In this document: positions 26,940-49,089 of the stretch, piece by piece
Layout: each line of letters starts with the position of its first letter
How positions within the stretch are numbered: the first letter of the stretch is position 1
Virus record (IMG/VR): IMGVR_UViG_3300036760_001400
Length of the DNA stretch: 64,000 bases
Strand: one strand, 5' to 3'
Origin: an uncultured virus (IMG/VR IMGVR_UViG_3300036760_001400)
Taxonomy: Duplodnaviria; Heunggongvirae; Uroviricota; Caudoviricetes
Notes under the pieces: model-generated
Database searches by the model: none
What the model saw: the letters and a program-made list of their open reading frames with translations, nothing else
What the model was told of the DNA's origin: nothing
Translations under genes and position numbers: made by a program

Positions 26940-27769
26940 TTGAGATTGGCCTTTCTCCACTCATAGTGGCTCGAGATAATAGCCCTTAGATCAAAAGATG
27001 GTTTCCACCCGAAGTCCTTCGAGATTCTCGAGATATCGGCTACAAGGGACTTTGGATCCCCTTGCCTCTCTGGCATAAACTTGATGGCGATCTTCTTCCC
27101 GGTCACTTCCTCTGTCACGCTGACCACGTCAAAGACGGAATGTCCAACGCCGGTCCCGACGTCATAAATCCCCTTCTTTTCCATGGCCATGAAGGTGACT
27201 TTAGCCACATCATCAACATGGATGTAATCGCGGATCAGGTGCTGCCCATTTCCGTAGACTTCAAAGGGTTCGTCTTTAAGAGCAGCCATGACAACCCTTG
27301 GAATGATATGGGTTTCATTCTTGTGATCCTCGTCCCCTCCAGCTACATTGAAGTACCTGAGGATGGAGGCATCAGGAAAGAGATCCATGACCATCTGTTC
27401 GCAGGCATACTTGGACTGGCCATACGGGGTCATCTGATGATAGATTGCCGCGGAAGAAGCGAGCACGATCTTCTTATCCGTAGCCTCCCTGAGGAAAAGC
27501 ATTGGAGCTGCCACGTTATTCCACCAGTATGTCCACGGGACAGAACGGGATTGCGAGGCATCGATAAGTCCCGCACAATGAATAACGGTTGAAACTTTAG
27601 TCCAATCGACAGCGGAGCCAGCGGCATCTATATCCTCTTCAATTAGATCGTGGCTTCCGACCCTATCGCGGCTACCCTCCATAAGATTATCAACAGCAAC
27701 ACCCTCATGCCCCATAAGCTCAAGGACATGATGGCCGATATAACCGGCTCCACCTGTAACCAGAATCAT
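26936..27769 (-). CDS. NAD-dependent epimerase/dehydratase (GalE-like)
   Basis: start MILVTGGAGYIG at 27769; YGQSK; LRYFNVAG; RDYIHVDD. Confidence 0.9.
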   Translation of the reverse strand: MILVTGGAGYIGHHVLELMGHEGVAVDNLMEGSRDRVGSHDLIEEDIDAAGSAVDWTKVSTVIHCAGLIDASQSRSVPWTYWWNNVAAPMLFLREATDKKIVLASSAAIYHQMTPYGQSKYACEQMVMDLFPDASILRYFNVAGGDEDHKNETHIIPRVVMAALKDEPFEVYGNGQHLIRDYIHVDDVAKVTFMAMEKKGIYDVGTGVGHSVFDVVSVTEEVTGKKIAIKFMPERQGDPKSLVADISRISKDFGWKPSFDLRAIISSHYEWRKANLK

Positions 27770-30207
27770 GAAGGCACCGAAAGTCCAACCAGGTTCAGCC
27801 ACTCGTTCACAATGCCCTCCCACGAATAGGCCTTGGCTTTCTTGATGGACTTCTCGCTGTAGTACCGCCACTTGTCCTTATCCGAGAGCATCGAAACGAC
27901 TTCATCGATGAATCTCGCCTTGTATTCCGGAGTATGATTGACCCCTCCGATCAGGATGCCAGCGTCTCCGATCGTCGTCGAGAGTGCAGCGAGGTCCGAC
28001 GTGATGACAGGATTCCCGGCCGCCATCTGCTCGGCCCCCGTGATGCAGAACGTCTCCGTGAACTGCGTCGGGAAAGCGAACAGTTCCGCCTTCAGCATTT
28101 CCTTGGCAAGCTGCGTCTGGCCAACGCGCTCCCTGTAGACAACGCCGGGGTCGTCCAGCCTGGCCTTTATCGAATTCATCCACTCAAGCTCTCCGGGCCG
28201 TCCGCCGCGATGCTTGATCGCTTTTTCCCAATTTTGGAATCCATAGAACACGTGGACGTTCGCGTGCGGAACGCGCTTCCGGATCTCCGGAAGGCAGTCG
28301 AGCAGCACGTCAAGGCCCCGATCCGGAGAGCTGGAATAGACCATGCGCCCGGGCTCCTTGGGCAGCCTGCGCTCGAACCTTCCAAGATCGATGCCGTCGC
28401 GCGAGACCACCGTCTTCGAAGGGTCGGCGTTCTTGTGGTGCTTCAGGAAGAACTCTTTGTGCCACGGCGACAGGACAAAGAACTTATCGACGTTCTGGGT
28501 CCAGAGGTTCGCGTTGGGGTCCTGGGAAAGCCAGATGTCATGCACGATGATGGCCTTCTTGTCGGCCATGATCGGATGTTCAAAGATATCCGCCCTGCGG
28601 GACGACACGAAGAACTGGAACCGGTTCGCCTTCCTAAACTCGTCCCACTTCGTGTAGTGAATGTACTCGACGCCGTCGTACACCCCCTCCATCCCGTCGC
28701 AGTCGCCGATCACGACCGACCGGTACCCTCGCTTGGCAAACTCTCGTGCCGTGCAGATGGTGGCCGTTTCGCTGCCGCCAATCCCGCCTTCGTCGATCGA
28801 TTTTGGGCTCCAGCGCTCCCAGCCCTGGCCGGTGTAGATGCCGAAGAGCGGCCTGAAGTCCGTGACGATCGCACGGGTCGCGACCCTGAGGTCTGATGGA
28901 GCAGGCGTTTCAGGAGGCTTCTCGAGAGGAACAAGCTCATCCCGGAACTCAGGAGAGCCCGGCGAGATGCCCCACTTTTTCATGAAGTAGCCGTGATTCT
29001 TCAGGTCTTCTTCGTGATGCAGGGCATGGTTCTGGTCCTCGGCCTTCTTCCGGGTCTTTCCACCGAAGTGAAAAACCCAGCTGTCGAACGTCTGGACCAT
29101 CCTGTACCCGGCGTCACGGAGGCGCTTGCAGTAGTCGAGATCTTCGTCCCCGGATAGGAACCCTTCGTCAAGCAGGCCGACCTTGTCTACGGCCTCGCGC
29201 GGCATGAGCGTGCAGTAGAAGGCGAGCCACTTCCGGACGTGAGTTTCCTTCCTGTGCCAGTAGTCCCGGATCTGAGGCTCGATGCCGGCCACGTCCTCTT
29301 TGGTCATGCCGGGCCTGAGCGTGCGGCCGCCGATTACGATGTTTTCTTGATGCCGCCAACCCATGTCACAGTTACTGAACGGCCCGACGGCGCCGACGCC
29401 CGGCTTTTGGGCCTCATGCATGAGGGCCGTCAGCCAGCCTTTACCGACGATCGTATCGTCGTTCAGGAGACAGACGTACTTTTCCTTCGCGATATTGAGC
29501 CCGACGTTGTTCGCCGCCGAGAAATGGAGTCTCGCCGGAGAGCAGGCGTGAATGACATCGGGCTGCTGCTTGATCCACTCGAACGATCCGTCGCTATTGT
29601 TCGAAGCCACGATGATGATATTGTGCGGCCAGTCCGTCGCCAAGCGGATCGACTCCACGCACAGCTTCAGGTACTCAAGGTTGCCGTAGGTTGGAATGAT
29701 GATGTCTACTTTCGGGGGGCGGCAGTTCCGCAGCGCCCTGCGCTTAATGAGGTCGGACCACTGGGCGCCGATCGTGTCGATGGAAAAAGCGTCCTTGACG
29801 GACTCCTTTGCGGCCTGCCCCATGGACAGGCGAAGGCTTTCGTTTTCGTTCAGACGTCTAAGCGCCTGCTTCCAGTCTTCGTCGGACCTGCAGATGAATC
29901 CGTTCACCCCGTTCTGGATGATCTCCTCGTAGGCGGGGAGCGGAGACGCGAGGACTGGTTTCCCGAGGGACATGGCCTGGACCGCGCGGTTCGCGCTCTT
30001 CCCGGGCTGGATGTCATGCCGTGCCACGCAGACCACGACGTCGGCCTTCCTCAGCTCGTCCAGCCAGGTCTCCCTGGACCACTTGATGTCGTGGTCCTTC
30101 CATTCGCTCATGGTCCTGAAGTCCATCCCAAGCTCACGGCAGATCGGGCGTAGGAACTCGGAGATGCCGACGTTTCCGCCCATTGCGCTTGAGGTAACCT
30201 TAAGCAT
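27766..30207 (-). CDS. multidomain glycosyltransferase (GT4 part + GT2 + GT4)
   Basis: AMSLGKPV, DIIIPTY...LLNDDT, YSSSPDRGL...ETFCIT. Confidence 0.85.
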   Translation of the reverse strand: MLKVTSSAMGGNVGISEFLRPICRELGMDFRTMSEWKDHDIKWSRETWLDELRKADVVVCVARHDIQPGKSANRAVQAMSLGKPVLASPLPAYEEIIQNGVNGFICRSDEDWKQALRRLNENESLRLSMGQAAKESVKDAFSIDTIGAQWSDLIKRRALRNCRPPKVDIIIPTYGNLEYLKLCVESIRLATDWPHNIIIVASNNSDGSFEWIKQQPDVIHACSPARLHFSAANNVGLNIAKEKYVCLLNDDTIVGKGWLTALMHEAQKPGVGAVGPFSNCDMGWRHQENIVIGGRTLRPGMTKEDVAGIEPQIRDYWHRKETHVRKWLAFYCTLMPREAVDKVGLLDEGFLSGDEDLDYCKRLRDAGYRMVQTFDSWVFHFGGKTRKKAEDQNHALHHEEDLKNHGYFMKKWGISPGSPEFRDELVPLEKPPETPAPSDLRVATRAIVTDFRPLFGIYTGQGWERWSPKSIDEGGIGGSETATICTAREFAKRGYRSVVIGDCDGMEGVYDGVEYIHYTKWDEFRKANRFQFFVSSRRADIFEHPIMADKKAIIVHDIWLSQDPNANLWTQNVDKFFVLSPWHKEFFLKHHKNADPSKTVVSRDGIDLGRFERRLPKEPGRMVYSSSPDRGLDVLLDCLPEIRKRVPHANVHVFYGFQNWEKAIKHRGGRPGELEWMNSIKARLDDPGVVYRERVGQTQLAKEMLKAELFAFPTQFTETFCITGAEQMAAGNPVITSDLAALSTTIGDAGILIGGVNHTPEYKARFIDEVVSMLSDKDKWRYYSEKSIKKAKAYSWEGIVNEWLNLVGLSVPS

Positions 30208-30314
30208 GAATAAGCCAACCTTTCATGGTGAGATCCGTTCCAATACCAACAACGAGCGAGACTACCCGATCTGCAGCAAAAATGTCCTTCGCCATAATCA
30301 GCCCTCCTATACCA

Positions 30315-32345
30315 CTAGGTCGTGGTCTCGTAGGCGTCCGAGATCACGATCGTACGGCCGTACTTTGTGGCCTTCTCGGCAAGCGTCTTTGAGCAGCAGA
30401 CGATGACCTGTGCGGCCTCAAGGCACGGCGCGATCTCCGGGTGCAGGTCGACCAGGTCCTCGTTGTAGTCGACCATGGTCGTGACGCCGGTAAGATTCAG
30501 CTTCTCCATGACCCGGCGCTCGAGATCCGACAGGTACGTGAAGACGACCACGTCGAAGTGGCGCACCTGGCTCACGATACCGCCCTCGTCCTTCACATGG
30601 TAGTTCGGCACGAGCTCGCTCTGGATGCCGTGCGTGGCGAGCCATCTTGAGATGTTCGTCCTGCGGATCCGGGTCGACGGGTCGTCCTCGTTCCCGGAGC
30701 GGAGCATCCAGGCGACTCTGGGTTCTTTTGCAGTCTGGATCGCTTCAACCTCAAGGCTGGGCGTCCCGAACCCGTCGTACGTTTCGGCCTTCAGGATCTC
30801 AAACCCGCTTGTCTTAAGAAGCCTCGTGAGTCCAGGCAGCGTGAACCCCGTTCTGTGGTACTGTCCGTCATCAGGTTCGTGAGCCTGACCCACCTGGATA
30901 CCGTAAATCGTGTACTTGTACCATTCCTTCTGGGTCCAGCGTTCGCCGGCCTTGCGCGGCCGGTCCTCGCTCTCCACGAACTTTTTGCAGCATTCATCGA
31001 GGTCCGGGACCATGAGATGCAGGTGACCGCCGTAGCGGAGCGCGCGGGCCCATTCCCCAACGGTCTCCTCGGCCCTGTAGTGGCTGTCGGAGTGTTCAAG
31101 TGCGTGTTCGCTGCGGATCGCATGGACCACGCCGTCATCGTAAGGAATAAGGGACTGGTCCATCTGGAACTGGACGCCATCGCCCATGTAGAGGTCGCAG
31201 TTCCGCCATCCGGAAGCGGGCTTGCCGCCTGAACCAAGGTTCAGGCGCACCGGCCTCGGGGACAGTCTGTCGTACAAGTTGTCCCGAAGGAAGTGCCGGT
31301 TGAACAGAAGCCTTTTGTCTTCAGGACGGTACGAGAGCGACGACTCATTCCACTCGTAGGCTTTCCGGACGTTCCCGATCTCACTGTAGCATTTGCAAAG
31401 CCGGTCTCTGGGCACCCAGGTATAGTTGTCCAAAATGACCGTGCCCCAGGTCTCCGGCACCGGACACGAAGCCGCGATCTCGAACCAGCGGATCGCGGTC
31501 CCCCAGTCAGACCGATCGTAGTAGATCTGGCCGATCAGGCAGTAGAACTCGGCCCAGCGCGGGTCGAGCTTTACCCCGCGCAGGGCCGCATCGATGGCCT
31601 TATCTTCCTTTTTCTGCGTCAGGTAATCCATGGCCAGCCAGAAGTAGGCGTTGACCTGGTTCTCGTGCCAGTCGCCTTTCGTGAGATAGTCCTCGAGGAT
31701 CCGGATCGACTCTTCCTGAGAACCCTCGTTGTAAAGCTCCTTGCCAAGATAGAACTTAACCCTTTGATTATCAGGATGTTGAATGAGCGCCTTCCGAAGC
31801 ATTCGAATATTACGACCTCTGTCCGCCGTTGCCCCCTCGCCCGTTCGACGATGCGTTATGACGACATTCGTCATCGCCTCTTTAGTGCCTGGAATAATGC
31901 ATAGGTGCTCGTGAATCGGAAGTTCCCAACGAACGCGTGGATTAGTCTTAACGATTCGATGCCTGTAGAACTTGCAGATGGGCTTGTCGAACTCGTCCTG
32001 GGCATAGTCGTACATCATGAGATATGCGTCAGCCTTGCCCAGCTCAGGCTTGAGCGCAATCAAGCGCGCACGGTCCTCTGGACGGAGCTCATCATCCGCG
32101 TCCATCCACATCGTCCACTCGGAGGTGACCTTGGAGAATGAAAAGTTTCTAGCTGCCGCGAAGTCATCGATCCATTCGAAGTCATAAACCTTGGCGCCGT
32201 ATGAGATAGCGATCTCCTTGGTACGGTCAGAACTGCCCGTATCAATGATCACCATTTCATCAAAACAGCCTTTAATGCTCTCAAGAAGACGAGGAAGACT
32301 CTTTTCCTCATTCTTCGCGATCATGGCCAGGCCAAGAGTAGGCAT
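30315..32345 (-). CDS. GT2 + TPR + methyltransferase-like fusion protein
   Basis: AMIAKNEE, DTGSSDRT, DFAAARN, MDADD; TPR-like helices; LNLGSG...HALEH. Confidence 0.88.
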   Translation of the reverse strand: MPTLGLAMIAKNEEKSLPRLLESIKGCFDEMVIIDTGSSDRTKEIAISYGAKVYDFEWIDDFAAARNFSFSKVTSEWTMWMDADDELRPEDRARLIALKPELGKADAYLMMYDYAQDEFDKPICKFYRHRIVKTNPRVRWELPIHEHLCIIPGTKEAMTNVVITHRRTGEGATADRGRNIRMLRKALIQHPDNQRVKFYLGKELYNEGSQEESIRILEDYLTKGDWHENQVNAYFWLAMDYLTQKKEDKAIDAALRGVKLDPRWAEFYCLIGQIYYDRSDWGTAIRWFEIAASCPVPETWGTVILDNYTWVPRDRLCKCYSEIGNVRKAYEWNESSLSYRPEDKRLLFNRHFLRDNLYDRLSPRPVRLNLGSGGKPASGWRNCDLYMGDGVQFQMDQSLIPYDDGVVHAIRSEHALEHSDSHYRAEETVGEWARALRYGGHLHLMVPDLDECCKKFVESEDRPRKAGERWTQKEWYKYTIYGIQVGQAHEPDDGQYHRTGFTLPGLTRLLKTSGFEILKAETYDGFGTPSLEVEAIQTAKEPRVAWMLRSGNEDDPSTRIRRTNISRWLATHGIQSELVPNYHVKDEGGIVSQVRHFDVVVFTYLSDLERRVMEKLNLTGVTTMVDYNEDLVDLHPEIAPCLEAAQVIVCCSKTLAEKATKYGRTIVISDAYETTT

Positions 32346-32474
32346 TACGAAACCTCGATTACCTTGAAAGGCCACATAAAGATGCGAAGGAAGGTTTCTT
32401 CAAGAGTCTTCTGTTCGCGATGAGCGACAGATCAAGCGTATTCATGGGCCCTTATGTCCCCTTAAGTAAAAGGG

Positions 32475-32503: not shown

Positions 32504-32540
32504 GAAAAATATTTAGGTATAATCTTCTAGGTAGATGATA

Positions 32541-32618
32541 ATGAACGACTTCATCCACTCGAGGGATTGTAGAAACTGGCTGTGCCGGCTGATCTGGTGG
32601 ATCTGCGGCCGTAGGTAA
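32541..32618 (+). CDS. 25-aa Cys/Trp-rich peptide (not in the ORF track)
   Basis: MNDFIHSRDCRNWLCRLIWWICGRR exactly fills the gap between repeat copies 1 and 2. Confidence 0.4.
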   Translation: MNDFIHSRDCRNWLCRLIWWICGRR

Positions 32619-32650
32619 TCTTTCTGACCGAAGATTATAGGAGAACCAAA

Positions 32651-32857
32651 ATGAGTGACCGGAAGATCCTTGGCTTTGTTGACCGAGAGGTCATGGGCGA
32701 TCCGAATTCATTCGGCACCTTCTTGGTAGGGTTAAAACATTCTGCCGAGGATCTTGCGATCTATGCGAACGAAAGAGACAACGATAAAAAAGCCGCTAGA
32801 TACTGGAATTCTCTCGCAACTGACATCGAAAAATTGAAAACAAAGTACAATCTCTAG
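32651..32857 (+). CDS. hypothetical protein (array unit)
   Basis: AGGAG SD directly after the repeat. Confidence 0.65.
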   Translation: MSDRKILGFVDREVMGDPNSFGTFLVGLKHSAEDLAIYANERDNDKKAARYWNSLATDIEKLKTKYNL

Positions 32858-32897
32858 ATAATCGTCCAACGGAAGATAAAAAGGAGGTATTGGTACT

Positions 32898-33119
32898 ATG
32901 GAAATTCCGAAATCCTTTTACAGCTTTACCACCGACCCCGAAACTCAGAAGATCCGTAGTGTCACTTGCGACTTGTGCAAAGAGAGGATTTTTGACGTCA
33001 CGTTCTTCTCGAGAAGGTACGACGCCGCAATCGCATCACACATGCGCGGGAAACACGGGCCTTTCGTAAAGGCTCTGGCGCTTCAGAAGCTCGCGCTTCC
33101 TCCTAGCTGGATAGAGTAA
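32898..33119 (+). CDS. C2H2-type zinc-finger protein (array unit)
   Basis: CDLC...HMRGKH; AGGAGGT SD. Confidence 0.6.
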   Translation: MEIPKSFYSFTTDPETQKIRSVTCDLCKERIFDVTFFSRRYDAAIASHMRGKHGPFVKALALQKLALPPSWIE

Positions 33120-33165
33120 GACGGCTCCATGTATAATCTTCCCAACGGAAGATAAAGAGGTACGA

Positions 33166-33402
33166 ATGATTGATGCGAAGAAGGAGCTAACGACTCCTGA
33201 CCTGTGCGTGAAGATCTGCCAGGAGGCGCGAGCTTCGGGGTACCAGTCGTCTGTCTGTTACGATCTCACGTCGAACCACAAGACCGCAGTCGTTGTCATA
33301 TCCAACCCTGAACGCATGTTTGGTGGAGGCGACGTGATTGCGCCGAGGTTCTGTGTCACAAAGATTCACCTCGGGAAGATTGTGTCGGAGCAGTTTGTCT
33401 AG
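33166..33402 (+). CDS. hypothetical protein (array unit)
   Basis: GAGGT SD; stop abuts the next repeat. Confidence 0.6.
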   Translation: MIDAKKELTTPDLCVKICQEARASGYQSSVCYDLTSNHKTAVVVISNPERMFGGGDVIAPRFCVTKIHLGKIVSEQFV

Positions 33403-33437
33403 GTAATCTTCCAACGGGAAGATAATAGGAGAGAAAT

Positions 33438-33680
33438 ATGTCTACTTTACTCACAAGAGACGGCCGGGTTCCGAAGAACAAGTGGGTTGTTCTGTCGTAT
33501 TCCGGAGGCCGCCCCCTCTCGAAGCATCAGTTCAAAAGCTCAGCGATTGATAAGGCGCTCATGAAGACCTACCAGACCGGAAATCGGTATGTGGTTTGCG
33601 AGATAATGGTAGCGCCATCCGGAAAGCCATTCTTGGCAATCGCCTACGACACGAGGCGTGAGGCCGACGCTCGTAGGTAA
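33438..33680 (+). CDS. hypothetical basic protein (array unit)
   Basis: AGGAG SD; TAA stop supplied by the repeat. Confidence 0.6.
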   Translation: MSTLLTRDGRVPKNKWVVLSYSGGRPLSKHQFKSSAIDKALMKTYQTGNRYVVCEIMVAPSGKPFLAIAYDTRREADARR

Positions 33681-33702
33681 TCTTAGTGGAAGAAGATTAT
33701 AA

Positions 33703-34161
33703 ATGACCCGAAGGAACCCAGAAAAGGTCGAGTTGGAGACAGACTTCTCCGACCCTGAACTCGGTCAGGTCGGGAGCGTGGACGTCTGGCTCTCTGATGA
33801 CCGGGACCAAACATATCTTGGTGGCTGGTACGGCTACGCCGACGAACTCGCCAGAAGACTCGAGGAGGACGAATACTTCGGACTGTCATCGTATCTTCAG
33901 AAAGTCGACGGTCATCAGGTAGGCTATATCGCCGGAATGGAGGTTCGTCAGGATCTCACGGGCCGCGGAATCGGTACTGCGATGATCGAAGCGTGCCTCG
34001 ATATCATGAGGCAGAAGCAAGTAGATGTCGTCTTCCTTCATCGTAGCGCAGGGAATCGTTCCAGCGACGAACAGCTCGAGAAGCTGTATAAACGGATCGG
34101 CTTCAGAAACGTGAAGTGTTGTGCGAGAGACATATGGCCGGTGATGAGGATGGATCTTTAG
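33703..34161 (+). CDS. GNAT acetyltransferase (array unit)
   Basis: VRQDLTGRGIGT motif A and LYKRIGF. Confidence 0.8.
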   Translation: MTRRNPEKVELETDFSDPELGQVGSVDVWLSDDRDQTYLGGWYGYADELARRLEEDEYFGLSSYLQKVDGHQVGYIAGMEVRQDLTGRGIGTAMIEACLDIMRQKQVDVVFLHRSAGNRSSDEQLEKLYKRIGFRNVKCCARDIWPVMRMDL

Positions 34162-34213
34162 TCCCTAGGTAATCTTCTCGGCAGAAGATAAAAAGAGTGC
34201 TAGGAGAGGAAGA

Positions 34214-34525
34214 ATGACCCATACGCCGGGCCCGTGGACCATGAAGCCTGGAGAGCCTGAACTTCGGGAGGGCTGGAGCATCGAAGCGCCAAATGCTTCC
34301 CACCCTCTCGGAGCTAAGTATGTCCGCGAAGACAACGTGGTCGGGAAATGTTGCTCTGCTGGCGTATACCGCGAAGAGGACGCCCGGCTAATCTGCGCTG
34401 CCCCTGAACTTCTGGAGGCGCTCAAATACGTGCGTTCGGAATGGTCCGTTCACCCACCGTGCGCTCCGTTCCTGGTCGAGAAGGTAAACGCCGCCATCGC
34501 CAAGGCTGAAGCGGTCGTAGGATAA
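34214..34525 (+). CDS. conserved phage-type protein (array unit)
   Basis: MTHTPGPW...DARLICAAPELLEALK pattern familiar from phage early genes; stop inside the repeat. Confidence 0.7.
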   Translation: MTHTPGPWTMKPGEPELREGWSIEAPNASHPLGAKYVREDNVVGKCCSAGVYREEDARLICAAPELLEALKYVRSEWSVHPPCAPFLVEKVNAAIAKAEAVVG

Positions 34526-34559
34526 TCTTCCAACGGGAAAATAAAAGAGAGGTGAACTC

Positions 34560-34841
34560 GTGGATCGTAGATCCTTTTTCAGGCTGATCGGAAGGGTCGC
34601 CGCGGCCGGCGTGGCGGCAAAGGTCGCACCCGGACTCCTCGTCGCTCAGGCTTCTTCCGAGTGTCCAATCGGGCTTCCAGGAGTCACTGGGGCTCAGGGC
34701 GTCCAAGGTTCGATCGGAGTCGCTTACAACTGGACCGGATGGAACTGTCAGCCTAAGGCCATCAGGTTCCCGTGTACTCGACAATCAGCTGCACTCTCAA
34801 GTTCGATGCTCCGGTCGCCACCTGAGGAACCTGCACGCTGA
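34560..34841 (+). CDS. protein with twin-arginine-like N-terminus and short collagen-like segment
   Basis: MDRRSFF...; GLPGVTGAQGVQG; 3' end overlaps the convergent gene. Confidence 0.45.
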   Translation: MDRRSFFRLIGRVAAAGVAAKVAPGLLVAQASSECPIGLPGVTGAQGVQGSIGVAYNWTGWNCQPKAIRFPCTRQSAALSSSMLRSPPEEPAR

Positions 34842-37263
34842 AGACGTCGCCCTTCTTGAAGGCCGTGATGTCCGGCAACGCGGTGTCGCGATTCCTGTTG
34901 GTCGACGCCGCGGTCGCGCCGATCATGGGCCGGTTTCCCGCCGTCGTAAAGACGGTTCCAAAGGTGACTTCATAAGGCGTCGTGGACAGCGTGCCGGTCC
35001 CGCGCATCATGTCCACGATGGTCGTGCCTGCGGTTCCGTTCGCCTGAAGCGACATCAGGACATCCTTGATCGTTCCGAAACGGGGCATGATCGCGTGGTT
35101 GTCCATGCCGGTGATGATGGTGACCGCGCTCAAGTTCCAGTCGATGCCCAGGACATTCACCTGGGCGCCCGTCAAGCCCTGGACGCCCGTGACGGACTGC
35201 GCTCCGGTCAGGCCGTCAATGCCCGTCAGGCCCTGAATGCCTGTGGGCCGTGCTCCGGTCGGCGCAAAGCCGGTGATCCCCTGGATCCCGGTGAGGCCTT
35301 GAACCCCGGTCAGCCCTTTGATACCCGTGATCCCCTGAGTCCCCGTGGGCTGTTCGCCCGTGACGCTCTGGACTCCGGTCACGCTCTGGATTCCCGTGAA
35401 GCCGTACCCGGTGATACCTTGCACGCCGGTCAGACCATGAGCACCCGGAAGCCCCAGGATGCCGGTCGGCTGATTTCCAGTGATGCCTTGAGCGCCTGTG
35501 GATACCCCCGGAGCTCCGGTCGGCTGATTTCCCGTGATCCCCTGGACCCCGGTGAGCCCTTTGATGCCGGTGATCCCCTGGTTCATGCGGCCATCAGCGC
35601 CCGTCAGGCCTTTGACGCCGGTGATCCCCTGGCGGCCTGTGGGAGAAATTCCAGTGATACCTTGAATGCCGGTGAGCAGACCTTGGGCTCCAGTCAGACC
35701 TTTGACTCCGGTAGGTGAAGCCCCAGTCGGAGAATTACCCGTGATGCCCTGAACTCCAGTCACGCCCTGGATCCCAGTCAAACCCTGGATGCCGGTGATT
35801 CCCTGGATGCCGGTGGGCTGTTCTCCGGTGAGCCCTTTGACGCCCGTGATACCCCAAGTTCCCATGTACCCGTCGACAACCGAGTCCTGGAGCGACACGA
35901 AGTCGACGCAGATCTTCGTGTAAGGCGGAGTCTGGGTCATCCTCCACTTCGTTCCGCCCACCGTCGACGCGAGAGTCACCAGCTTGCCGGATGCGCCCAG
36001 GACCGTGAGCGTCGTTATGGTTGTCCTGGACCCCGCTGTGAACAGGATCGAGTGGACGGCTGTCGCGTCGTCAGACCTGAAATCCGTGAACGTGTTGTTG
36101 CCGGAGAGAGTGAGAGTGGCAGTCCCAGAACCGCTACGACGGAACTTTCCGAACTTCAGGCCTCCGAGCGCAAAGGTCCTACCAGTCGAGGCGGTGCTGT
36201 TGAACGTGATATCGAACACCGCAGGGATCGTTGCGCCGGCGGTAAACGTGATCCCAGACAGCTCAGCTTTAACACCAGATCCGTTGGTGATGACCCCGGT
36301 CGCACTAACGCTAAGCGACGTAGCAATAGCCGAGACAAAATCACAGGTCCCCGTGAAGTCGAGCGTGCCGTTGACGGTAAGAGCCCCGGCCATCGTGACC
36401 GTGGGGTTTGCTCCAAGCGGGATCGTCGTCCCCGAACTGATGGTCATTATGGATGACCCGGTCTTCGTGATTATCCACGTGCCCCAGGTCGTGGCCGGAC
36501 TGTCGATGATCTGACTGGGGGAACCGCCGCTTGCGAGTACAGCGATTCCGTTTGGAAATATGGCAGTCGAGCTGATCGTGACGCTGCCCGTTATCTCCAT
36601 GGTGCCAGGAGTCGTCCAGGTTACCGTGCCTGTGCTGCCGACGGTTAGATTGTTTGTCGATCCAGTCAAAGTAAACGTTCCGGTCAATGTGAGGGTTCCA
36701 TTGATAGTCAATGTCCCGTTAAGCGAGATTGCCGGGTTCGTTCCAAACGGGACCGTCGTACCTGAAGAGACGGTAAGGTTGTTCGAACTTACAACAACGG
36801 TACATAGATTGAACGACACTCCCGCGGCATCTACGATCTGCGTCGCTACCCCCTGATTAAAGGTCACCGTTCCGCTGTTATGCGTGAACGAGCCCGCTGA
36901 TATTGTGAAGTTTCCTCCAACTCCCATCGTGGCGCTCGTCGCCGTGAAGGCTCCGCCTGTCTGCGTAAACGTGCCGGTGGTCGAGGCAGTCCATGCCGCT
37001 CCGCTTGTGTCGAGCCACGTGCCTCCGGCGATCGAGAAGTTCGACGTGGTCATGGACACGGTTTTCGTGATCGTGCCGCTGTAAGCCGAGGTGATCGTGA
37101 ACGTGCCGCCGCTCCATGTGCCAAGATTGTCTATAGTGCAGTTTTTTACAGACGTTCCGTCAAACGTGATGGTATCGACCGTCAGTGGAACCGTACCGCC
37201 GTTCCAGGCTGCACCGGTAGACCAGTTGTCGTCGACCGTTGCAGACCAAGTTTTCGCAGCCAT
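34762..37263 (-). CDS. fibre protein: T/G-rich beta-repeat domain, collagen-like region, C-terminal globular domain
   Basis: G-X-T repeats; C-terminal domain paralogous to that of 41517-44330. Confidence 0.8.
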   Translation of the reverse strand: MAAKTWSATVDDNWSTGAAWNGGTVPLTVDTITFDGTSVKNCTIDNLGTWSGGTFTITSAYSGTITKTVSMTTSNFSIAGGTWLDTSGAAWTASTTGTFTQTGGAFTATSATMGVGGNFTISAGSFTHNSGTVTFNQGVATQIVDAAGVSFNLCTVVVSSNNLTVSSGTTVPFGTNPAISLNGTLTINGTLTLTGTFTLTGSTNNLTVGSTGTVTWTTPGTMEITGSVTISSTAIFPNGIAVLASGGSPSQIIDSPATTWGTWIITKTGSSIMTISSGTTIPLGANPTVTMAGALTVNGTLDFTGTCDFVSAIATSLSVSATGVITNGSGVKAELSGITFTAGATIPAVFDITFNSTASTGRTFALGGLKFGKFRRSGSGTATLTLSGNNTFTDFRSDDATAVHSILFTAGSRTTITTLTVLGASGKLVTLASTVGGTKWRMTQTPPYTKICVDFVSLQDSVVDGYMGTWGITGVKGLTGEQPTGIQGITGIQGLTGIQGVTGVQGITGNSPTGASPTGVKGLTGAQGLLTGIQGITGISPTGRQGITGVKGLTGADGRMNQGITGIKGLTGVQGITGNQPTGAPGVSTGAQGITGNQPTGILGLPGAHGLTGVQGITGYGFTGIQSVTGVQSVTGEQPTGTQGITGIKGLTGVQGLTGIQGITGFAPTGARPTGIQGLTGIDGLTGAQSVTGVQGLTGAQVNVLGIDWNLSAVTIITGMDNHAIMPRFGTIKDVLMSLQANGTAGTTIVDMMRGTGTLSTTPYEVTFGTVFTTAGNRPMIGATAASTNRNRDTALPDITAFKKGDVFSVQVPQVATGASNLRVQLIVEYTGT

Positions 37264-37266
37264 GGT

Positions 37267-37467
37267 CTATTCCAGGCCATCCTTCTTAGGCGTCATGTTC
37301 TTGATCGATCTGGAAACGGCGTTCGGGAACCGCTTTTCCGACAACCTCATCGCCTCCATGAAGTCGAAGGCCGGAATGACGATGGTCGTCTCTTTCCGGA
37401 CGGCCAGCGGTTTGCCAGGCACCCGCTCGAACCATTCCGCATGGACCTGATACTTGATGGCTTTCAT
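37267..37467 (-). CDS. hypothetical protein, 66 aa
   Basis: AAGGA SD before MKAIKYQV. Confidence 0.5.
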   Translation of the reverse strand: MKAIKYQVHAEWFERVPGKPLAVRKETTIVIPAFDFMEAMRLSEKRFPNAVSRSIKNMTPKKDGLE

Positions 37468-37475
37468 AGCGTCCT

Positions 37476-40400
37476 TTATGGCGGACAGGCCGCAAAGATC
37501 CAGTTGGCATTCCCGGAGACGTCGACCGAGTTCGCCCCGGCATACCATCCGGCGGTGGGCCCTCCCACGCCGGTGATGCCGATATCAAGCCCGGTGATCC
37601 CCATCAGTCCCGTAATACCTTTGATTCCGGTCGGCTGGAATCCAGTGATCCCCTGGACTCCGGTCAGACCCTTGATACCCGTGATACCGCGAGAGCCGGT
37701 CAGGCCAATCACGCCGGTGGGCTGGGTCCCGGTGACACCTTGGATCCCGGTGAGACCCTGGACTCCGGTCAGGCCCTTGATGCCGACGAAAACGACAGGC
37801 GCCATGGATACCGCAAAGAGCGAGCGTTCGGCCGTGCCTTGAGAACCCGTCAAGCCGCTCATCGTCAGATCGAACTGGGTAGAGGCACTTCTCCTTTTCA
37901 CGGTCATCCATTGACCGGGCAGAAGATCGCTTGTACTGAAGCTCTTTCCGCTGTTGGTCGCGTCGCCCTGGCTTACGCCCGCCATGAGCAGGTCCGGGAT
38001 CAGACTTTCATCGACCGCGCCAAAGCTCACCTGGCCGGATCCGAACGCCCAGATATCGGCCGTCCGGGTCGGAACCAGCGTCACGGTCTGGACTGTCGCC
38101 GCGGCCGTCGAGGCCTCGGTGTAGGCATTCTGGTGATCGAGGAACTTGTTGAGGTCGATCGCGAATACAGCCGAAGCTTCCCGGGTCGCCGACCCTGCCG
38201 GAGTCGTCCGGCTCTCCTCCGTGAACGACTGGGCGGCTATCGCGAGCGCCGGGAACACCCTCATGTTCACGAACGGGATGATGGGGGCCACCAGGTCCCC
38301 GGAATCCTGAGTCTCGCACTGGGTCGAAAGGAACGGCAGCGTGTCCGTGACCGTCCCCGTGCTCTCCATTCTCGACTGATTTTCGTGAGTCGTCGCGACG
38401 GCCGGAACAAGGCTGGACAAGGTGAATACGAGCCAGTCATGACCGGCCACAGAAGGCGAGAACGAGACGCTGGCATTGTTCGAAGCCGACCAGGCTCCGG
38501 AACTCAGATCCGTGCTGGCAAGAACGGCATTGTAGTACCAGTCCGTGTTCTCCTGGAGCTGCTCGCTGATCTCGATGGCCAGGAGCTTGAAGGTATAAAC
38601 CGACGTGGTCCCTCCCGGGGAATCTGAATTTATGACCGCGAGATCCACATCGCCGCCGTCTGCGGTCCAGACCGTGAAATACGTGTACTGCCTGTTGAAT
38701 CCGTTTCTTAGATTCAGGGCGTGGAACCATTCTCTTGATCCATCAAATGGAGTACCCCCTCCGTGGATCGTCTCGATCTGCGAGACATTCGGATTTAATG
38801 TCTTTCCGCCTCCGTAGACGGCGGTCGCCACGATGAGGTACCTGCGGTTCGTGATAAAGAATGAAGACGGTATATGTGCGCCCGGCACCAGGGTCAACGT
38901 GCCGTTTGTCGTACTAAACGGCGTCGTCGACTCCGCCGTATAATGAGGAATCTGGCTGGGCTCCCCGTCCACGTCGACCCCGGTGACGCCTTTGATGCCG
39001 GTGATCCCTACGGCACTCGTCAGTCCCTGAACGCCGGTGGGCTGGTTGCCTGTGATGCCCTTGACCCCCGTAACCTGGACTCCGGTGATTCCAGAAACTC
39101 CCGTCAAACCCTGAACGCCTGTCCCACGGTTTCCCGTGATCCCCTGAACGCCGGTCATGCCCTGGACTCGCGCACCGACCGGAGTCGCAAGATCGGTGGT
39201 GATGGCGATGATCTGACGAAACTCTGCGGTCGCGCTGGTTGCGGCCTGATTATTGCCGTCTACCGTAATGGTGTGGCTCGACGACCGAAGATCCCCGAAA
39301 TACTGGAACTGGACGGGACCCACCTGATTGACGTTGACGTTTTTTTCTATGGAAAGGTTGGCTGCCGTCTGACCTGCCGGTGTGTCCACCCCGTCGGTCT
39401 GAAGCCTCGCGTTGATCGGGAAGTCTGAGGCCGGCGCGGTAAAGCCAAAAGACGACAGAGCCCATGTTTTCCCGTCCCACGTTGGATTGATTGATCCCGT
39501 CTGGATATTGGTCCCAAAGCTCGGGGGATCAAGGGTCACCCCGCCGTCGGTATACGTCGCCAGGTGGTTCTTGAATTTTGAGAGGTTAAGCGCAAAGACT
39601 GCCGAGTACGTCCTTGTTCCGTCTGGGCCACCGAGATCGCACCTCGACTCTTCCGTGAACGTGTTTGAAACGTTACTGAGGTTGAACGCCCTGACATTGC
39701 TTAAAAGGTTAATCCACGGGAAAGCCACATGGTAGCCTTGCACATACTCAAGATAAGGCGTGGTCGATGAAGCCTCTCCAGAACGATTGAGCCTGGTCGT
39801 TACGAGAGAAAAGGGCGGACCTGTAAGGACAGATTCAGAAAGGACAAGCCAGTCATCCCCGGCGTTCTGCGGAGTAAAGGTGACTGAAGCATTGTTGTAG
39901 GTCGAGAATTCGGTCGGCACGAGATCCGTGGTCTCATCGACCACATTCGAATACCAGTCTTTGTTTTCCTGGAGGAACTCCGAGATCTCCATCGCAAACA
40001 TTGTGATCTGGTCAAGAGTGGCCGAGGCTCCGGCGTTCGTGGCTTTTAGCTGAAGAGTTATCGACTCCCCTGCAATGGCCGTCCAGACATTGAAGTAGGT
40101 GTAGGTGTAGGTTGACCCTGCGTTGGTCTGCTCATTTACGAACTTCCTTGATCCTTGGAAGTCCGTAGTCCCATGGACAAGTTTTGTATTGTTCCCTGTA
40201 GCGTTTGTGCTGATGCCCATGAGCGCGTTGATGACGAGGAGATACTTCCTTCCAGCCACGAAGTTCGCGGAGCTGATCGTCGCTGCCGTGACATAAGTCA
40301 GGCTGCTGGTCGCCTGCTGGGTCATCTGCTCCGTGTAGGCCGTCGGAAGCGCCGTCGGCGTGACGCCTGTCACACCCTGGACTCCGATCCCTCCGATTCC

Positions 40401-41513
40401 GGTGATGCCCTGCACACCTGTATCGATTCCCAGAGCACCGGCGGGAGAAGCTCCCGTGGGAGCTTCGCCCGTCAGACCTCTTTGGCCGGTCAGCCCCTGA
40501 ACTCCAGTCAGTCCCTGGACTCCGGTGAGTCCCTGCACGCTGAGACCGGTATTGCCGAGGATCCCCTGGGCACCCGTGATGCCCCTAGTTCCTGTCAGGC
40601 CTTTGACCCCGGTGAGCCCCTGCTCGCCGATCGGAGACGCGCCCGTGATGCCGACCGTTCCGGTCAGGCCTTTGACGCCGGTGATTCCTTGAGTTCCAGT
40701 AAGGCCCTGCACGCCCGTCAGCCCCTGGACGCCCGTGATCGCGTTTGCGCCGGTCTCACCTTTGGCGCCGGTCAGGCCTTTGATTCCCGTCAATCCCTGA
40801 ACTCCAGTCGGAGCTTCTCCAGGAACTCCCTGCGCTCCGGTGGGCTTGAATCCAAGGACTCCGCCCGCCGCGCCGGTCAGGCCCTGGACTCCGGTCGGCT
40901 GCGCTCCCGTGGGAGCAATGCCGGTCACGCCCTGGACGCCGGTCGCACCGCTCATGACACCGGTCAGGCCCACGAAGCCCTGAGCTCCCGTCAGCCCTTG
41001 ATATCCCGTGCCGATGAAGCCGGTCGCGCCTTTTACCCCGGTGATGAACTGGATTCCGGTCAGGCCCTGAACCCCGGTGAGCCCCTGAACGCCGGTCTGG
41101 CCTTTTACGCCCGGGAATCCCACGCCGGTCAGCCCTTTGATACCGGTCGGGCCGCGGATCCCGGTTGGCCCCTTGACCCCCGTCAGGCCGTCCACGCCGG
41201 TGAGTCCTGAGATGCCGGTGTCTCCGGAAAGCCCGGTGCCGCCGACGGACCCTGTGTCTGAACCTTGAGGGCCGGTCAGGCCTTTGATTCCCGTCAATCC
41301 CTGGACGCCCGTCAGGCCTTTTGTTCCAGTCAGACCTTGAGCGCCGGTCAGGCCATCCACACCGGTCAGACCTTGAACTCCAGTCAGACCTTGAGATGAG
41401 CCAGAAACGCCGGTGATCCCAACGACGCCGGTTCCACCTGGAGACGGAGCGGCAGCTCCGGTCAGGCCTTGGATGCCGGTAAGACCTCTGACGCCCGTGA
41501 TCCCTTGAGCCAT
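37476..41513 (-). CDS. collagen-like fibre protein with two paralogous globular domains
   Basis: GLTG/GITG repeats; duplicated domain (RKYLLV/RRYLIV, EISEFLQENKDWY/EISEQLQENTDWY, SAVFALNL/SAVFAIDL). Confidence 0.85.
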   Translation of the reverse strand: MAQGITGVRGLTGIQGLTGAAAPSPGGTGVVGITGVSGSSQGLTGVQGLTGVDGLTGAQGLTGTKGLTGVQGLTGIKGLTGPQGSDTGSVGGTGLSGDTGISGLTGVDGLTGVKGPTGIRGPTGIKGLTGVGFPGVKGQTGVQGLTGVQGLTGIQFITGVKGATGFIGTGYQGLTGAQGFVGLTGVMSGATGVQGVTGIAPTGAQPTGVQGLTGAAGGVLGFKPTGAQGVPGEAPTGVQGLTGIKGLTGAKGETGANAITGVQGLTGVQGLTGTQGITGVKGLTGTVGITGASPIGEQGLTGVKGLTGTRGITGAQGILGNTGLSVQGLTGVQGLTGVQGLTGQRGLTGEAPTGASPAGALGIDTGVQGITGIGGIGVQGVTGVTPTALPTAYTEQMTQQATSSLTYVTAATISSANFVAGRKYLLVINALMGISTNATGNNTKLVHGTTDFQGSRKFVNEQTNAGSTYTYTYFNVWTAIAGESITLQLKATNAGASATLDQITMFAMEISEFLQENKDWYSNVVDETTDLVPTEFSTYNNASVTFTPQNAGDDWLVLSESVLTGPPFSLVTTRLNRSGEASSTTPYLEYVQGYHVAFPWINLLSNVRAFNLSNVSNTFTEESRCDLGGPDGTRTYSAVFALNLSKFKNHLATYTDGGVTLDPPSFGTNIQTGSINPTWDGKTWALSSFGFTAPASDFPINARLQTDGVDTPAGQTAANLSIEKNVNVNQVGPVQFQYFGDLRSSSHTITVDGNNQAATSATAEFRQIIAITTDLATPVGARVQGMTGVQGITGNRGTGVQGLTGVSGITGVQVTGVKGITGNQPTGVQGLTSAVGITGIKGVTGVDVDGEPSQIPHYTAESTTPFSTTNGTLTLVPGAHIPSSFFITNRRYLIVATAVYGGGKTLNPNVSQIETIHGGGTPFDGSREWFHALNLRNGFNRQYTYFTVWTADGGDVDLAVINSDSPGGTTSVYTFKLLAIEISEQLQENTDWYYNAVLASTDLSSGAWSASNNASVSFSPSVAGHDWLVFTLSSLVPAVATTHENQSRMESTGTVTDTLPFLSTQCETQDSGDLVAPIIPFVNMRVFPALAIAAQSFTEESRTTPAGSATREASAVFAIDLNKFLDHQNAYTEASTAAATVQTVTLVPTRTADIWAFGSGQVSFGAVDESLIPDLLMAGVSQGDATNSGKSFSTSDLLPGQWMTVKRRSASTQFDLTMSGLTGSQGTAERSLFAVSMAPVVFVGIKGLTGVQGLTGIQGVTGTQPTGVIGLTGSRGITGIKGLTGVQGITGFQPTGIKGITGLMGITGLDIGITGVGGPTAGWYAGANSVDVSGNANWIFAACPP

Positions 41514-41516
41514 CGT

Positions 41517-44330: not shown

Positions 44331-44493
44331 ATATATTCTTCTTCGACTTTACATTGACCAGAAGCTGCCTTGACTTTTGATAGCAGGGAACACAGTAGCC
44401 GGTCGACTTCTTTCCGGGACCTCTGGGATCAATGGATCCCCAGCCCAGGAGCTTCCCGCACAGGATGCACTCGACCTTGTATCGGACATTCAC
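44323..44493 (-). CDS. 56-aa zinc-finger protein (not in the ORF track)
   Basis: AAGGA SD, GTG start, CILC...CVPC. Confidence 0.55.
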
Positions 44494-44504
44494 GACGAGT
44501 TCCT

Positions 44505-46250
44505 TTAGACGACAGCCACGACGTTATGCGAGATGCCTGCAGAGCCAGCCGTTCCATTCACACACACGATACCATTGTTGCCTGGATTCAGCCCCTTTAG
44601 CCCGCCGGCGCCTCCCGCTGCGGAAACAGTTGCCGTGCTTCCTGGAGGACCGATGAAGATGGAGAGGCCGCCGCCACCGCCACCGCCACCGCCGCCGCCA
44701 GGAGACCATAGGGTCGTACCCGGCAGATACGTATCACCGCCTGCGCCCCCGGCTCCGCCGGAAGCTAGGATACTCGGGCTGCCGGAGATCGTATTGCAGA
44801 TCACCACCGTGATGGCTCCGCCTCCGCCGCCTCCGCCTCCGCCGCCCGCACCGCCGGCGCCAGGGTTCACTCCTTGGAACCCCTCCCCGCCGCCTCCGCC
44901 GGCTCCGCCATCCCCGATCCCGCCGCCTCCGCCGCCCCCGCCTCCACTGTCCGATGAGCGGTTGACGCCGTCATTGTTGTCGTCCGTTCCAGACGATCCT
45001 CCCGCACCAGCCGATCCGGTGAAATGGAATGGGTCGTTATCGCTGAACCCGTTCGGAATGTAGATGTGATGCGGAGACCGGACAAAGCGAAGGTAATCCC
45101 TGCAGGTCCGGAGGACGTTGGTGACGGCTCCGTTTCCGATGCCCTTCGCTCCGCCGACGCTTGGCACGAATTGATATCCGGGAGCTGTAGCCGCCTTGCC
45201 TCCGGTCGTGGTGGAAATCTGGACACTCCATCCCATAAAATAATCTTCGACGCCGTCGATGTTCCCTTGTGCTCCGTTGGTAAGCCCTCCGGAGATAGCT
45301 CCGTTGGCTCCGTTCTGCCCGGCCTGGCCGCCGCCGATGTTTCCGCTGCCCACGAGGTGATTCGCAAACACGTAGAGGGCACCGGACTGGGCGCCTCCAT
45401 TCCCGCCGGCGCCAGCGCCGAATGTAGCCACACCCCCAGCGGGAGCAGTGCCGACCTTGGAGAAGATGGACCCACCGTTCAGCGTAAGCGTATCGCTGAT
45501 GTAGAGGACCATCCCCGTGTCTGAAGTGTCATGCGACAAGCTGAAACCTTGCAGATCGACGTTGGCGTAGCTCTTGATGTTGCTTCCGGCAGCCAGGACC
45601 GTGTTCGCACCCAGCGTCAGATCTCCGTCTGCACCGGACCCGAAGACCTCCCGGAACGAGTACCCGGCAATCGCCTGGCGAAGCTGGGTAGAAAGCGGCT
45701 GGGTGATGTCCCCGCCGATGTTATTGATGGTGGCACTGGATCCAGCCACGCCGGTAGCCCCCTGAGAGCCGGCAGTTCCGACGCCTGTCGCGCCTTTAGG
45801 GCCTGTAGCTCCAGCGCTTCCAACACCCGTCTGACCTTGGATTCCCGTGACTCCCTGAGTGCCTGTAGCCCCTTGAGGACCCCCTAAGGGGCCGGTACTT
45901 CCTTGGACACCGGTAGCTCCCTGAGCTCCTCCAGAAGGACCCGTAGGTCCAGCGCTTCCGATACCCGTTGATCCTTTAAGGCCTGTAATTCCTTGAACAC
46001 CCGTCGTACCTTGAGCGCCCGTGGAACCTACGAGACCCACGCCCGTCTGACCTTGAATCCCGGTTACACCCTTAGCGCCCGTAAATCCAGTGGCTCCCTG
46101 AACTCCGGTAGCTCCAACAGGCCCTCCAGAAGGGCCCGTAGGACCTTGAGTTCCGGTGGCTCCGATGGGACCTGCGGAAGGTCCAGTCAAGCCACGAAGA
46201 CCGGTAACCCCCTGGGCTCCGATTCCACCACCACCGCCGATTCTTGACAT
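44505..46250 (-). CDS. collagen-like protein with glycine-rich C-terminal domain
   Basis: G-X-T repeats, [10 protein letters not shown], poly-Gly tracts. Confidence 0.8.
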
Positions 46251-49086: not shown

Positions 49087-49089
49087 GGG

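Follow-up and report, generated by a model that had tools for sequence, protein, structure and literature searches.

In a 64,000-nucleotide stretch of DNA from an uncultured virus of the Caudoviricetes (IMG/VR record IMGVR_UViG_3300036760_001400; the whole 64-kb stretch is hereafter the window), we found an array of small genes in which every gene boundary carries a copy of one short site, built of two inverted 8-bp arms around an asymmetric 6-bp centre, and we found the same sites, with centres in one shared order, in phages that are otherwise unrelated to one another. Judged from the sequences, these ranked centres look like an address system for swapping genes in register, and the sites are best read as junctions for the in-register exchange of gene cassettes between arrays.

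Scanning both strands of the window with the pattern TAATCTTCNNNNNNGAAGATWA (at most 3 mismatches) returned 14 matches, which are seven sites each read on two strands (at 32520, 32616, 33134, 33404, 33678, 34170 and 34523), compared with 0.50 matches expected from shuffled sequence (maximum 2; 0 of 100 shuffles reached 14). A relaxed scan of the window recovered an eighth copy at 32859-32879, with a 5-nt centre (CAACG) and one arm mismatch, and gave just two 3-mismatch matches beyond 32520-34544 (at 2090 and 53894, minus strand). An earlier note on this DNA, made from its letters alone, had described eight same-orientation sites, one at every gene boundary, and the description held: all eight copies are best read on the plus strand, as are the open reading frames (ORFs) of the array, with the consensus ccCTAGG-TAATCTTC-N6-GAAGATWA, each boundary of the array at 32520-34544 carries one copy, and nothing comparable occurs elsewhere in the 64 kb. 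The details given there were also borne out, namely TAGG or TAGA directly upstream (7 of the 8 copies), an upstream ORF whose stop codon falls within or abuts the site (5 of the 7 boundaries), CAACG in four of the centres, and TATAAT in copies 1 and 4 (Table 1). The layout of inverted arms around a 6-bp spacer proved real, with centres that are exact within a slot (a place in the shared order, or rank), different between slots, and asymmetric.

None of 50,697 phage records matched the array in a blastn search. By pattern scanning, sites of this kind were located in six IMG/VR contigs (38-71 kb; G001-G006, of which G004, G005 and G006 are complete with terminal repeats), in eighteen metagenome loci, and in one contig binned with a Thermoanaerobaculia metagenome-assembled genome (MAG); two centres, TCGGCA and GTGGAA, served as bait in this search and the others did not. 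Of the 25 stretches that the first viral scan returned, 13 were rejected as isolated, unrelated matches, several of which share one conserved sequence context. Scanned over their whole length, five IMG/VR genomes had 3-13 sites each, in arrays only (reversed-pattern control, 0). The carriers form groups unrelated to one another: each of G001-G005 shares 1-3 of the 85 window ORFs, alignable DNA between the window and any relative amounts to at most 299 nt, and the relatives are richer in G+C (57-63%, versus 55% for the window). One genome, G005, has two divergent arrays bearing the same centre series. Among individual contigs, L070 (6058-6107) has GTAATC and TCAAGG sites 6 nt apart with no gene between them, an empty slot retaining both sites; L066 (4973 nt) is in its entirety an inverted duplication of one array with mirrored sites, probably an assembly fold-back, and its mirror half was excluded from the site counts; and G004 (loci L053-L056) encodes a helicase and a primase, with no capsid, portal or terminase family recognised among its 40 proteins scanned or in the window, as in a poorly known lineage.

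At least 15 kinds of centre were distinguished, all in one order: GTAATC, TCAAGG, TTCGGA, TCGGAG, TTGTTA, TGACTG, TAAAGA, CTGACC, CCAACG, CAACGG, GTGGAA, TCGGCA, TTGGTG, TCTGCG and TAGAGT. Across 21 arrays, 334 ordered centre pairs were concordant and 4 discordant, and the order taken from group B alone agreed with the other 17 arrays for 91 pairs versus 3 (0 of 10,000 shuffles reached this). The window series runs CTGACC, (CAACG), CCAACG, CAACGG, GTGGAA and TCGGCA, followed by a second CAACGG. None of the 15 canonical centres is palindromic, and adjacent ranks often differ by a one-base shift (CCAACG/CAACGG, TTCGGA/TCGGAG), which suggests that new ranks may arise by site duplication. The literature searched contained no ordered, centre-coded junction series in phages, nor ranked collinear centres common to unrelated phages.

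Conservation is confined to the site itself. Aligning 134 distinct site contexts, we found a conserved span from -8 to +23 only (ccCTAGG TAATCTTC N6 GAAGATAA a), with information content near 0 beyond it on both sides, and the 8-6-8 layout with an asymmetric centre is present in 125 curated sites from 20 contigs. Site pairs drawn from different groups were 84-95% identical in their arms and 26-28% identical, the level of chance, in their flanks; because the flanks are saturated with change, neutral descent fails to explain the centres. Slots were assigned at no more than 2 mismatches, a rule that itself limits possible centre divergence, and this placed 116 of the 125 sites; the nine without a slot, of which G003 has five, are more likely members of further ranks, and even when they are counted as drift the centre stays below the mismatch level of its borders. 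Measured against the slot consensus, mismatch per position was 0.30 in the left extension (-8 to -1), 0.039 in the left arm, 0.013 in the centre and 0.075 in the right arm, with 0.15 and 0.18 at positions 8 and 15, the arm positions bordering the centre. With the bait centres omitted, the centre had 7 mismatches in 450, versus 30 in 150 at positions 8 and 15 (Fisher p 1.7e-13) and 78 in 1200 over all arm positions (p 1.4e-5). An exact centre between variable borders is as expected of an overlap region and unexpected for an operator spacer or a homology tract, and same-slot centres would, as a conservation pattern only, fit the overlap identity of a tyrosine-recombinase core site.

The arms act as sequence and not as structure, with no hairpin-type covariation: pairing at the four variable arm positions was close to that expected from independence (observed/expected 0.84/0.82, 0.30/0.30, 0.87/0.88 and 0.59/0.64), A.A is the majority state at arm position 2 (82 of 125 sites), and just 7 of the 125 sites are perfect palindromes. 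Two arm types, ...CTTC/GAAG... and ...CGTA/TACG..., are combined in hybrid sites (in G001, TAATCGTA...GAAGATTA and TAATCTTC...TACGATTA), a product expected of exchange within the centre.

Genes between the sites turn over rapidly. Taken over all arrays, the 213 ORFs that lie between sites form 188 clusters, and 171 of these have a single member; group-A flanks align at 70-85% up to the array head and again past the array, with little aligning inside it beyond the sites. The earlier note had proposed scanning relatives for the motif, holding that a fixed gene order with transcription starts at each copy would speak for promoters or operators; no fixed order was seen, as the sites were kept and the genes between them replaced. 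Of 157 homology-block ends within arrays (counted from both partners, so that not all are independent), 33 fell inside a site (background 5.7%), about four times expectation, and 52 within 10 bp of one (background 9.1%); 105 lay more than 10 bp from any site. The first window cassette matches G001 from site to site (32520-32617, 82.8%). A G005 gene end runs GGCTCC directly into the CTAGG of a site, and in G001, whose copy is 91% identical, an 80-bp insert separates the gene end from the site; the G001 cassette with this insert is bracketed by two TTGGTG sites, as would be the footprint of a circle inserted at a matching-centre site. The 80-bp element (about 85% identical between G001 46034-46111 and G005 4616-4691) ends in CCCCTGTAA and, in G001, sits between gene end and site; a tRNA- or attP-like origin was rejected, ARAGORN finding no tRNA in six loci or the window. 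Cassettes are not strictly bound to slots: just 3 of 35 cross-contig protein matches keep both flanking centres.

Parts of the stretch were present, as assembled contigs, in seven DNA sequencing runs. Contigs from three other runs match 34757-35286/35407 with 4-6 differences and continue, on the array side, with 139-584 letters unlike the window. Contigs X2-X4 have little or no cover of about 32900-34400, which we did not count as a finding, and joints at site edges in two of them (32637>33675 in X2, 33706>34163 in X3) were left uncounted, their sides being only 21-23 letters and possibly from other phages with the same sites.

The sites are also tied to expression signals. All three reading frames are closed within -6 to +28 in 79 of 116 sites versus 2 of 116 random windows, by way of TAG-G-TAA ... 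GA-TAA or GATTA-TAG/TAA; in 73 of these 116 the upstream ORF ends at a stop codon supplied by the site (23 at -4, 42 at +1 and 8 at +20), and the next start lies 0-15 nt past the site in most cases, directly past it in 16. The first site of an array bears TATAAT ending at arm position 4, where inner sites mostly have GGTAAT. We read the array as an operon with a promoter at its head, and the inner sites as probable translational insulators. Group-A arrays have, immediately before the TATAAT with which the first site is merged, a GCACA-N13-TGTGC palindrome (at about 3560-3600 in L045 of G001, 6100-6140 in L056 of G004, 13640-13680 in L059 of G005, and 10260-10300 in L032), which likely serves the array promoter as an operator; copies resembling it stand ahead of the TCGGAG sites in L067 and L068, and another comes after the last G002 site.

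Centres that are exact within a rank, differ between ranks and keep their order suggest that arrays of different phages recombine in register at the sites. The 8-bp inverted arms (TAATCTTC / GAAGATWA), together with the left extension ccCTAGG, would dock a recombinase, and the asymmetric 6-bp centre would be the strand-exchange (overlap) region. With its own centre, each junction would find a partner in another array only at the equivalent rank, and this rank-specific pairing would prevent deletion between the direct repeats within one genome; in-register exchange between the arrays of co-infecting phages would reshuffle the alleles of each slot and bring in new genes. The same 30 bp would insulate expression, ending translation in three frames with the next start 0-15 nt behind, and with stops and a restart at each site any cassette could be expressed from the proposed promoter at the array head. 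We infer both the existence of the recombinase and strand exchange in the centre. Given that the arms are inverted and occur in hybrid combinations, that the centre is an exact island with variable borders, and that one cassette is flanked by same-centre sites, we regard conservative site-specific recombination, with the centre as overlap region, as a serious possibility that falls somewhat short of an even chance. The broader proposal of a natural multi-slot cassette exchanger, with at least 15 orthogonal sites of the same arms and different 6-bp overlaps, in fixed order, drawing on a pool shared by unrelated soil and sediment phages, is advanced more tentatively still. The cassette-shuffling locus of the earlier note is supported in part, as a hypervariable, cassette-like array whose content changes at the sites, where a putative site-specific recombinase would act.

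Candidate enzymes were found in the relatives. PF00589 tyrosine recombinases are present in all six IMG/VR relatives searched (G001-G006). Those of G001, G002, G004 and G005 form a family of 260-amino-acid proteins, mutually 58-83% identical, with a Cys-rich N-terminus and the catalytic domain only (residues 85-246), the nearest solved structure being HP1 integrase (E 5.7e-4). The G003 recombinase (309 amino acids), without detectable similarity to this family, is encoded between two sites; in the other relatives the integrase lies 8-16 kb from the array. The group-A recombinase is found in group-A contigs only (8 loci), and two of three new partial contigs that have it also have the sites, a co-occurrence that is not independent evidence because they belong to the same clade. 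Neither recombinase family has a relative in the window or the metagenome loci, and tblastn of the G001, G002 and G004 integrases against the window gave a best E of 0.95. A cut ORF at the window edge (5-352), S-adenosylmethionine (SAM) methyltransferase-like, is 49-51% identical to G001 34045-34593 and G004 49070-49618; in those two genomes the gene immediately precedes that of the recombinase, and no recombinase follows the window copy.

A host site was also sought. Two exact site variants had 0 and 1 matches in 185,579 species genomes, the single match being a phage-like MAG contig with an array of its own; this contig, from the Thermoanaerobaculia bin, gives the only hint of a host. The centre-free palindrome gave at least 119 matches, scattered over many phyla at chance level, and a host dif-like site found no support, as no coherent host clade appeared among the matches. 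In five Vogesella species genomes (L107, L112, L116, L124 and L142) this palindrome has one match each, in a conserved local sequence that is unrelated to the phage arrays as far as checked.

Several observations weigh against recombinase-mediated exchange in register. As the earlier note had remarked, no recombinase is visible in the window, either by Pfam (79 ORFs) or by PHROGs (77 ORFs); no protein family is common to all carrier groups, and the only families found in three groups including the window are a membrane-like protein of 84-100 amino acids and a protein of 137-144 amino acids. The relatives have two unrelated recombinase families, which are unlikely both to be served by the same sites, and the integrase that every group-A genome carries is nothing unusual in temperate phages. 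For a tyrosine recombinase, 8-bp arms are short, and all sites share the orientation of the genes and are joined with stop and start signals, which a pure recombination site does not need. In the assembled contigs of public runs, neither circles nor recombinant junction reads were seen. Several protein pairs of 66-93% identity occupy different slots, with homology stopping short of the sites: the seventh window cassette is 74% identical over 73 amino acids to an L070 ORF located in a different slot, and the homology starts at the ATG and stops within the gene. Finally, L067 and L068 have the same gene end and left arm followed by CCAACG, where L064 has CTGACC and a further cassette, so that, on sequence comparison, a slot is taken to have been lost or gained by a left-arm crossover, without centre identity.

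The best-surviving rival is that the sites are PeSL-like junctions, the 30-bp block being an expression signal (stop, restart and proto -10) that is used as short homology, with centres that keep the register; general or break-induced homologous recombination would use the block because it is the only DNA common to the arrays. The block, at about 30 bp, comes close to the shortest length that homologous recombination is said to require. HNH endonucleases (six among the 40 largest G004 proteins scanned, and one HNH family just upstream of the arrays in groups A and B) could supply breaks, the left-arm crossover and the 105 of 157 homology ends more than 10 bp from a site fit a less precise process, and the stops and starts at the sites suit an expression block. 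The PeSLs of T4-type phages are conserved intergenic promoter/stem-loop blocks that lie at replacement breakpoints (PMC4122927; PMC2839356). This rival is difficult to reconcile with a 6-bp centre that stays exact between positions 8 and 15, whose within-slot variation (0.15 and 0.18) often leaves uninterrupted same-slot identity of only about 14 bp; homologous recombination also leaves the inverted arms without explanation, and the 134-context alignment has no conserved -35 or promoter block, information content being near 0 upstream of -8. Weighing in its favour that no recombinase common to the carriers was found, that HNH genes are numerous and that some events are imprecise, we consider short-homology recombination possible and on the doubtful side.

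The earlier note had offered operators or early promoters as its alternative, and such purely regulatory sites, bound by a host or phage factor at the dyad TCTTC-N6-GAAGA (stoperator-like in the operator case) and with recombination incidental, seem unlikely to us. The strict co-orientation with transcription and the site at every gene start are what this account predicts, a 5-6-5 core would suit a dimeric DNA-binding protein, and stoperators are likewise reported to be oriented intergenic repressor sites (PMC9283540). The promoter version draws on the array head, where the first site merges with a perfect TATAAT (in group A behind the GCACA-N13-TGTGC palindrome), and on copies 3, 4 and 8 of the window, which score as sigma-70-like promoters. 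It is weakened in that no -35 is conserved, many sites have GGTAAT or GAATCT where a -10 needs its key bases, and the 3 sigma-70-like matches in the window compare with 2.1 in shuffles. For an operator, the spacer between half-sites should be the least conserved part, whereas the present spacer is, within a slot, the best-conserved part, with 15 kinds in a set order, and the sites are restricted to variable arrays. An RNA hairpin in the polycistronic transcript, serving translation coupling (with the stop at its 5' foot and the start at its 3' foot), weak ribosome-site sequestration or as a processing mark, would suit the upstream stops at -4, +1 or +20 and the nearby restarts, and 6 of the 8 window copies do fold into an arm hairpin, but it is highly improbable given arms without compensatory change (A.A at position 2 above all), folds that are weak (-4.5 to -11 kcal/mol, z 0.3 to -2.2) and not those of the site in 2 of 8 copies, and an array-head transcript that is predicted from the TATAAT position to start inside the site, without its left arm.

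Table 1 Junction sites and cassettes of the array in the 64-kb window, in order of position.
Feature	Coordinates	Strand	Description
Junction site 1, array head	32512..32541	+	tttaggTA-TAATCTTC-taggta-GATGATAA; TATAAT at 32518-32523
Cassette 1	32541..32618	+	25-amino-acid Cys/Trp-rich peptide (MNDFIHSRDCRNWLCRLIWWICGRR); stop TAA is bases 1-3 of site 2
Junction site 2	32608..32637	+	Centre CTGACC; same relative position in L064, L070, L072
Cassette 2	32651..32857	+	68-amino-acid ORF, without family match; stop TAG at -4 of site 3
Junction site 3	32851..32879	+	TAATCGTC-caacg-GAAGATAA; 5-nt centre; GATAAT at 32857-32862
Cassette 3	32898..33119	+	73-amino-acid ORF; C-x2-C...H-x4-H motif (C2H2-like); without Pfam/PHROGs family match
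Junction site 4	33126..33155	+	Centre CCAACG; TATAAT at 33132-33137
Cassette 4	33166..33402	+	78-amino-acid ORF; stop TAG at -4 of site 5
Junction site 5	33396..33425	+	Centre CAACGG
Cassette 5	33438..33680	+	80-amino-acid ORF; stop TAA is bases 1-3 of site 6
Junction site 6	33670..33699	+	TAATCTTA-gtggaa-GAAGATTA
Cassette 6	33703..34161	+	GNAT acetyltransferase, 152 amino acids; PF00583, E 8.4e-11; phrog_1249
Junction site 7	34162..34191	+	Centre TCGGCA
Cassette 7	34214..34525	+	103-amino-acid phrog_1273 protein; stop TAA is bases 1-3 of site 8
Junction site 8	34515..34544	+	TAATCTTC-caacgg-GAAAATAA; second CAACGG, outside canonical order
Last array ORF	34560..34841	+	93 amino acids, GTG start; N-terminus VDRRSFFRL, twin-arginine-like by eye; converges on tail-fibre gene

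The cargo of the window array is unrelated from gene to gene, as the earlier note had recognised; it includes a GNAT protein, a phrog_1273 protein and an ORF with a C-x2-C...H-x4-H motif, and three of the ORFs have no family match. Cassette 5 shares 46% identity with an ORF occupying the corresponding slot of G001, between CAACGG and GTGGAA, and the A at arm position 8 of site 6 is typical for the GTGGAA slot across contigs. Site 1 precedes the gene of the 25-amino-acid peptide, which is 71-96% identical to peptides in G001, G003 and L067 (a similar peptide start in L080 was recognised by eye); its homologues in G001 and G003 come after a TTGGTG site. Peptides of this kind (25-27 amino acids, Cys/Trp-rich, M-x-DF-x-HS-x-DC-x-NWLCRLIWW-x-CGR) are the best-conserved cassette, yet occur in different slots (window 32541-32618; G001 45653-45729; G003 after 33172; L067 about 1030-1108; L080 after 9831), in phages that otherwise share almost nothing.

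The array lies opposite to its flanks, also as described earlier, with glycosyltransferases (27766-32375) and collagen-like tail fibres (34762-46250) on the minus strand. The latter are four consecutive genes, with a stretch of 69% G+C at 42-44 kb, and contigs of other runs show many repeat-type joints over this region. Most window ORFs have no Pfam or PHROGs family, and no terminase, portal, polymerase or recombination protein was recognised among the ORFs searched. Elsewhere in the window we noted a LAGLIDADG endonuclease (53187-54137; PF03161, E 1.9e-25), a 541-amino-acid ORF with a weak, below-cut-off match to intein splicing (59995-61620; E 9.8e-4), and, in a phage context, a Ser/Thr protein kinase domain (5616-6452; PF00069, E 1.1e-16).

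How phages take up and reshuffle the small, fast-changing genes that govern host takeover and counter-defence is poorly understood, the usual explanations being illegitimate recombination and PeSL-type short homologies. A 30-bp junction that is near letter-for-letter the same in phages sharing no other DNA implies that very different phages exchange genes frequently and have a way to stay in register. If a recombinase reads the sites, they would make up a new, naturally occurring set of orthogonal recombination sites, also useful as a tool; if homologous recombination uses them, no case so far would show more clearly how selection has shaped short homologies for modular exchange. In both cases, the centre series provides a handle for cataloguing a large shared accessory-gene pool in metagenomes. 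A multi-slot exchanger, if true, would be the natural counterpart of laboratory exchange with heterospecific lox or FRT sites, swapping without cassette loss.

Comparison with known systems places the sites outside the families that they most resemble. The arrays are like integrons in that each site goes with one small gene and the genes, all in one orientation and without promoters of their own, follow a single promoter at the head; the cargo is very diverse in both. Integron attC sites are 57-141 bp long, are recognised as folded single strands and have little sequence conservation. By contrast, the phage sites are 22-30 bp long, conserved in sequence, without structural covariation, and ranked rather than interchangeable; neither an adjacent intI with attI and promoter nor attC structure was found, and the window contains no PF00589. 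Heterospecific lox and FRT sites have identical arms and different asymmetric spacers, and only like sites recombine, giving in-register exchange without deletion. The core layout of lox, FRT and dif-type sites, inverted arms around an asymmetric 6-bp centre, is present in the 125 curated sites; lox and FRT variants are an engineered use of Cre and Flp, however, whereas here the series is natural and the enzyme a proposed one. We know of no natural multi-slot series of the heterospecific lox/FRT kind. Like the stoperators of cluster A mycobacteriophages and the start-associated sequences of cluster K, the phage sites are short conserved boundary sites beside start codons and oriented with transcription; stoperators are described as asymmetric 13-mers of one kind spread genome-wide, unlike the dyads with ranked centres that we find restricted to arrays (3-13 per genome).

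The pdif (xrs) sites of Acinetobacter plasmids are similar in that several short sites, with inverted arms around a 6-bp centre, bracket accessory genes, and the logic of their centres is close to the one proposed here: divergent central regions give no deletion, and matching centres give recombination between co-resident plasmids, by which modules are exchanged (PMC11705084). A pdif site, in that account, is 28 bp long with 11-bp XerC and XerD arms and ATAA-centre-TTAT, a form that the phage sites do not have, with arms of 8 bp and CTTC/GAAG bordering the centre instead of ATAA/TTAT. The phage sites further differ in being direct repeats co-oriented with genes, one per gene and not alternating, in their fixed collinear centre series across unrelated phages, in their phage carriers, and in that no host dif-like copy was found in the species genomes searched. 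The T4-type PeSL and PmSL elements (Arbiol 2010; Comeau 2014) flank variable ORFs and yield mini-circles (PMC4122927; PMC2839356), and the likeness extends to conserved composite intergenic blocks before small variable genes, hyperplastic regions with breakpoints of insertion, deletion and replacement at these blocks, and a proposal of cassette shuffling. PeSLs, as those reports present them, combine a stem-loop with a full -35/-10 promoter in a looser sequence; the phage sites are a breakpoint block in a hyperplastic region as well, but have no -35 or sigma-70 promoter and no hairpin covariation, and instead have a dyad with an exact slot-specific centre, in conserved order and near identity across phages sharing no other DNA. 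The sites therefore belong to neither the Xer/pdif nor the PeSL family, nor to integrons, since the defining site features of each are lacking, and the dif/pdif or integron membership entertained in the earlier note falls away. The proposed logic of the arrays matches that of the Acinetobacter Xer sites, and their biology that of the PeSLs.

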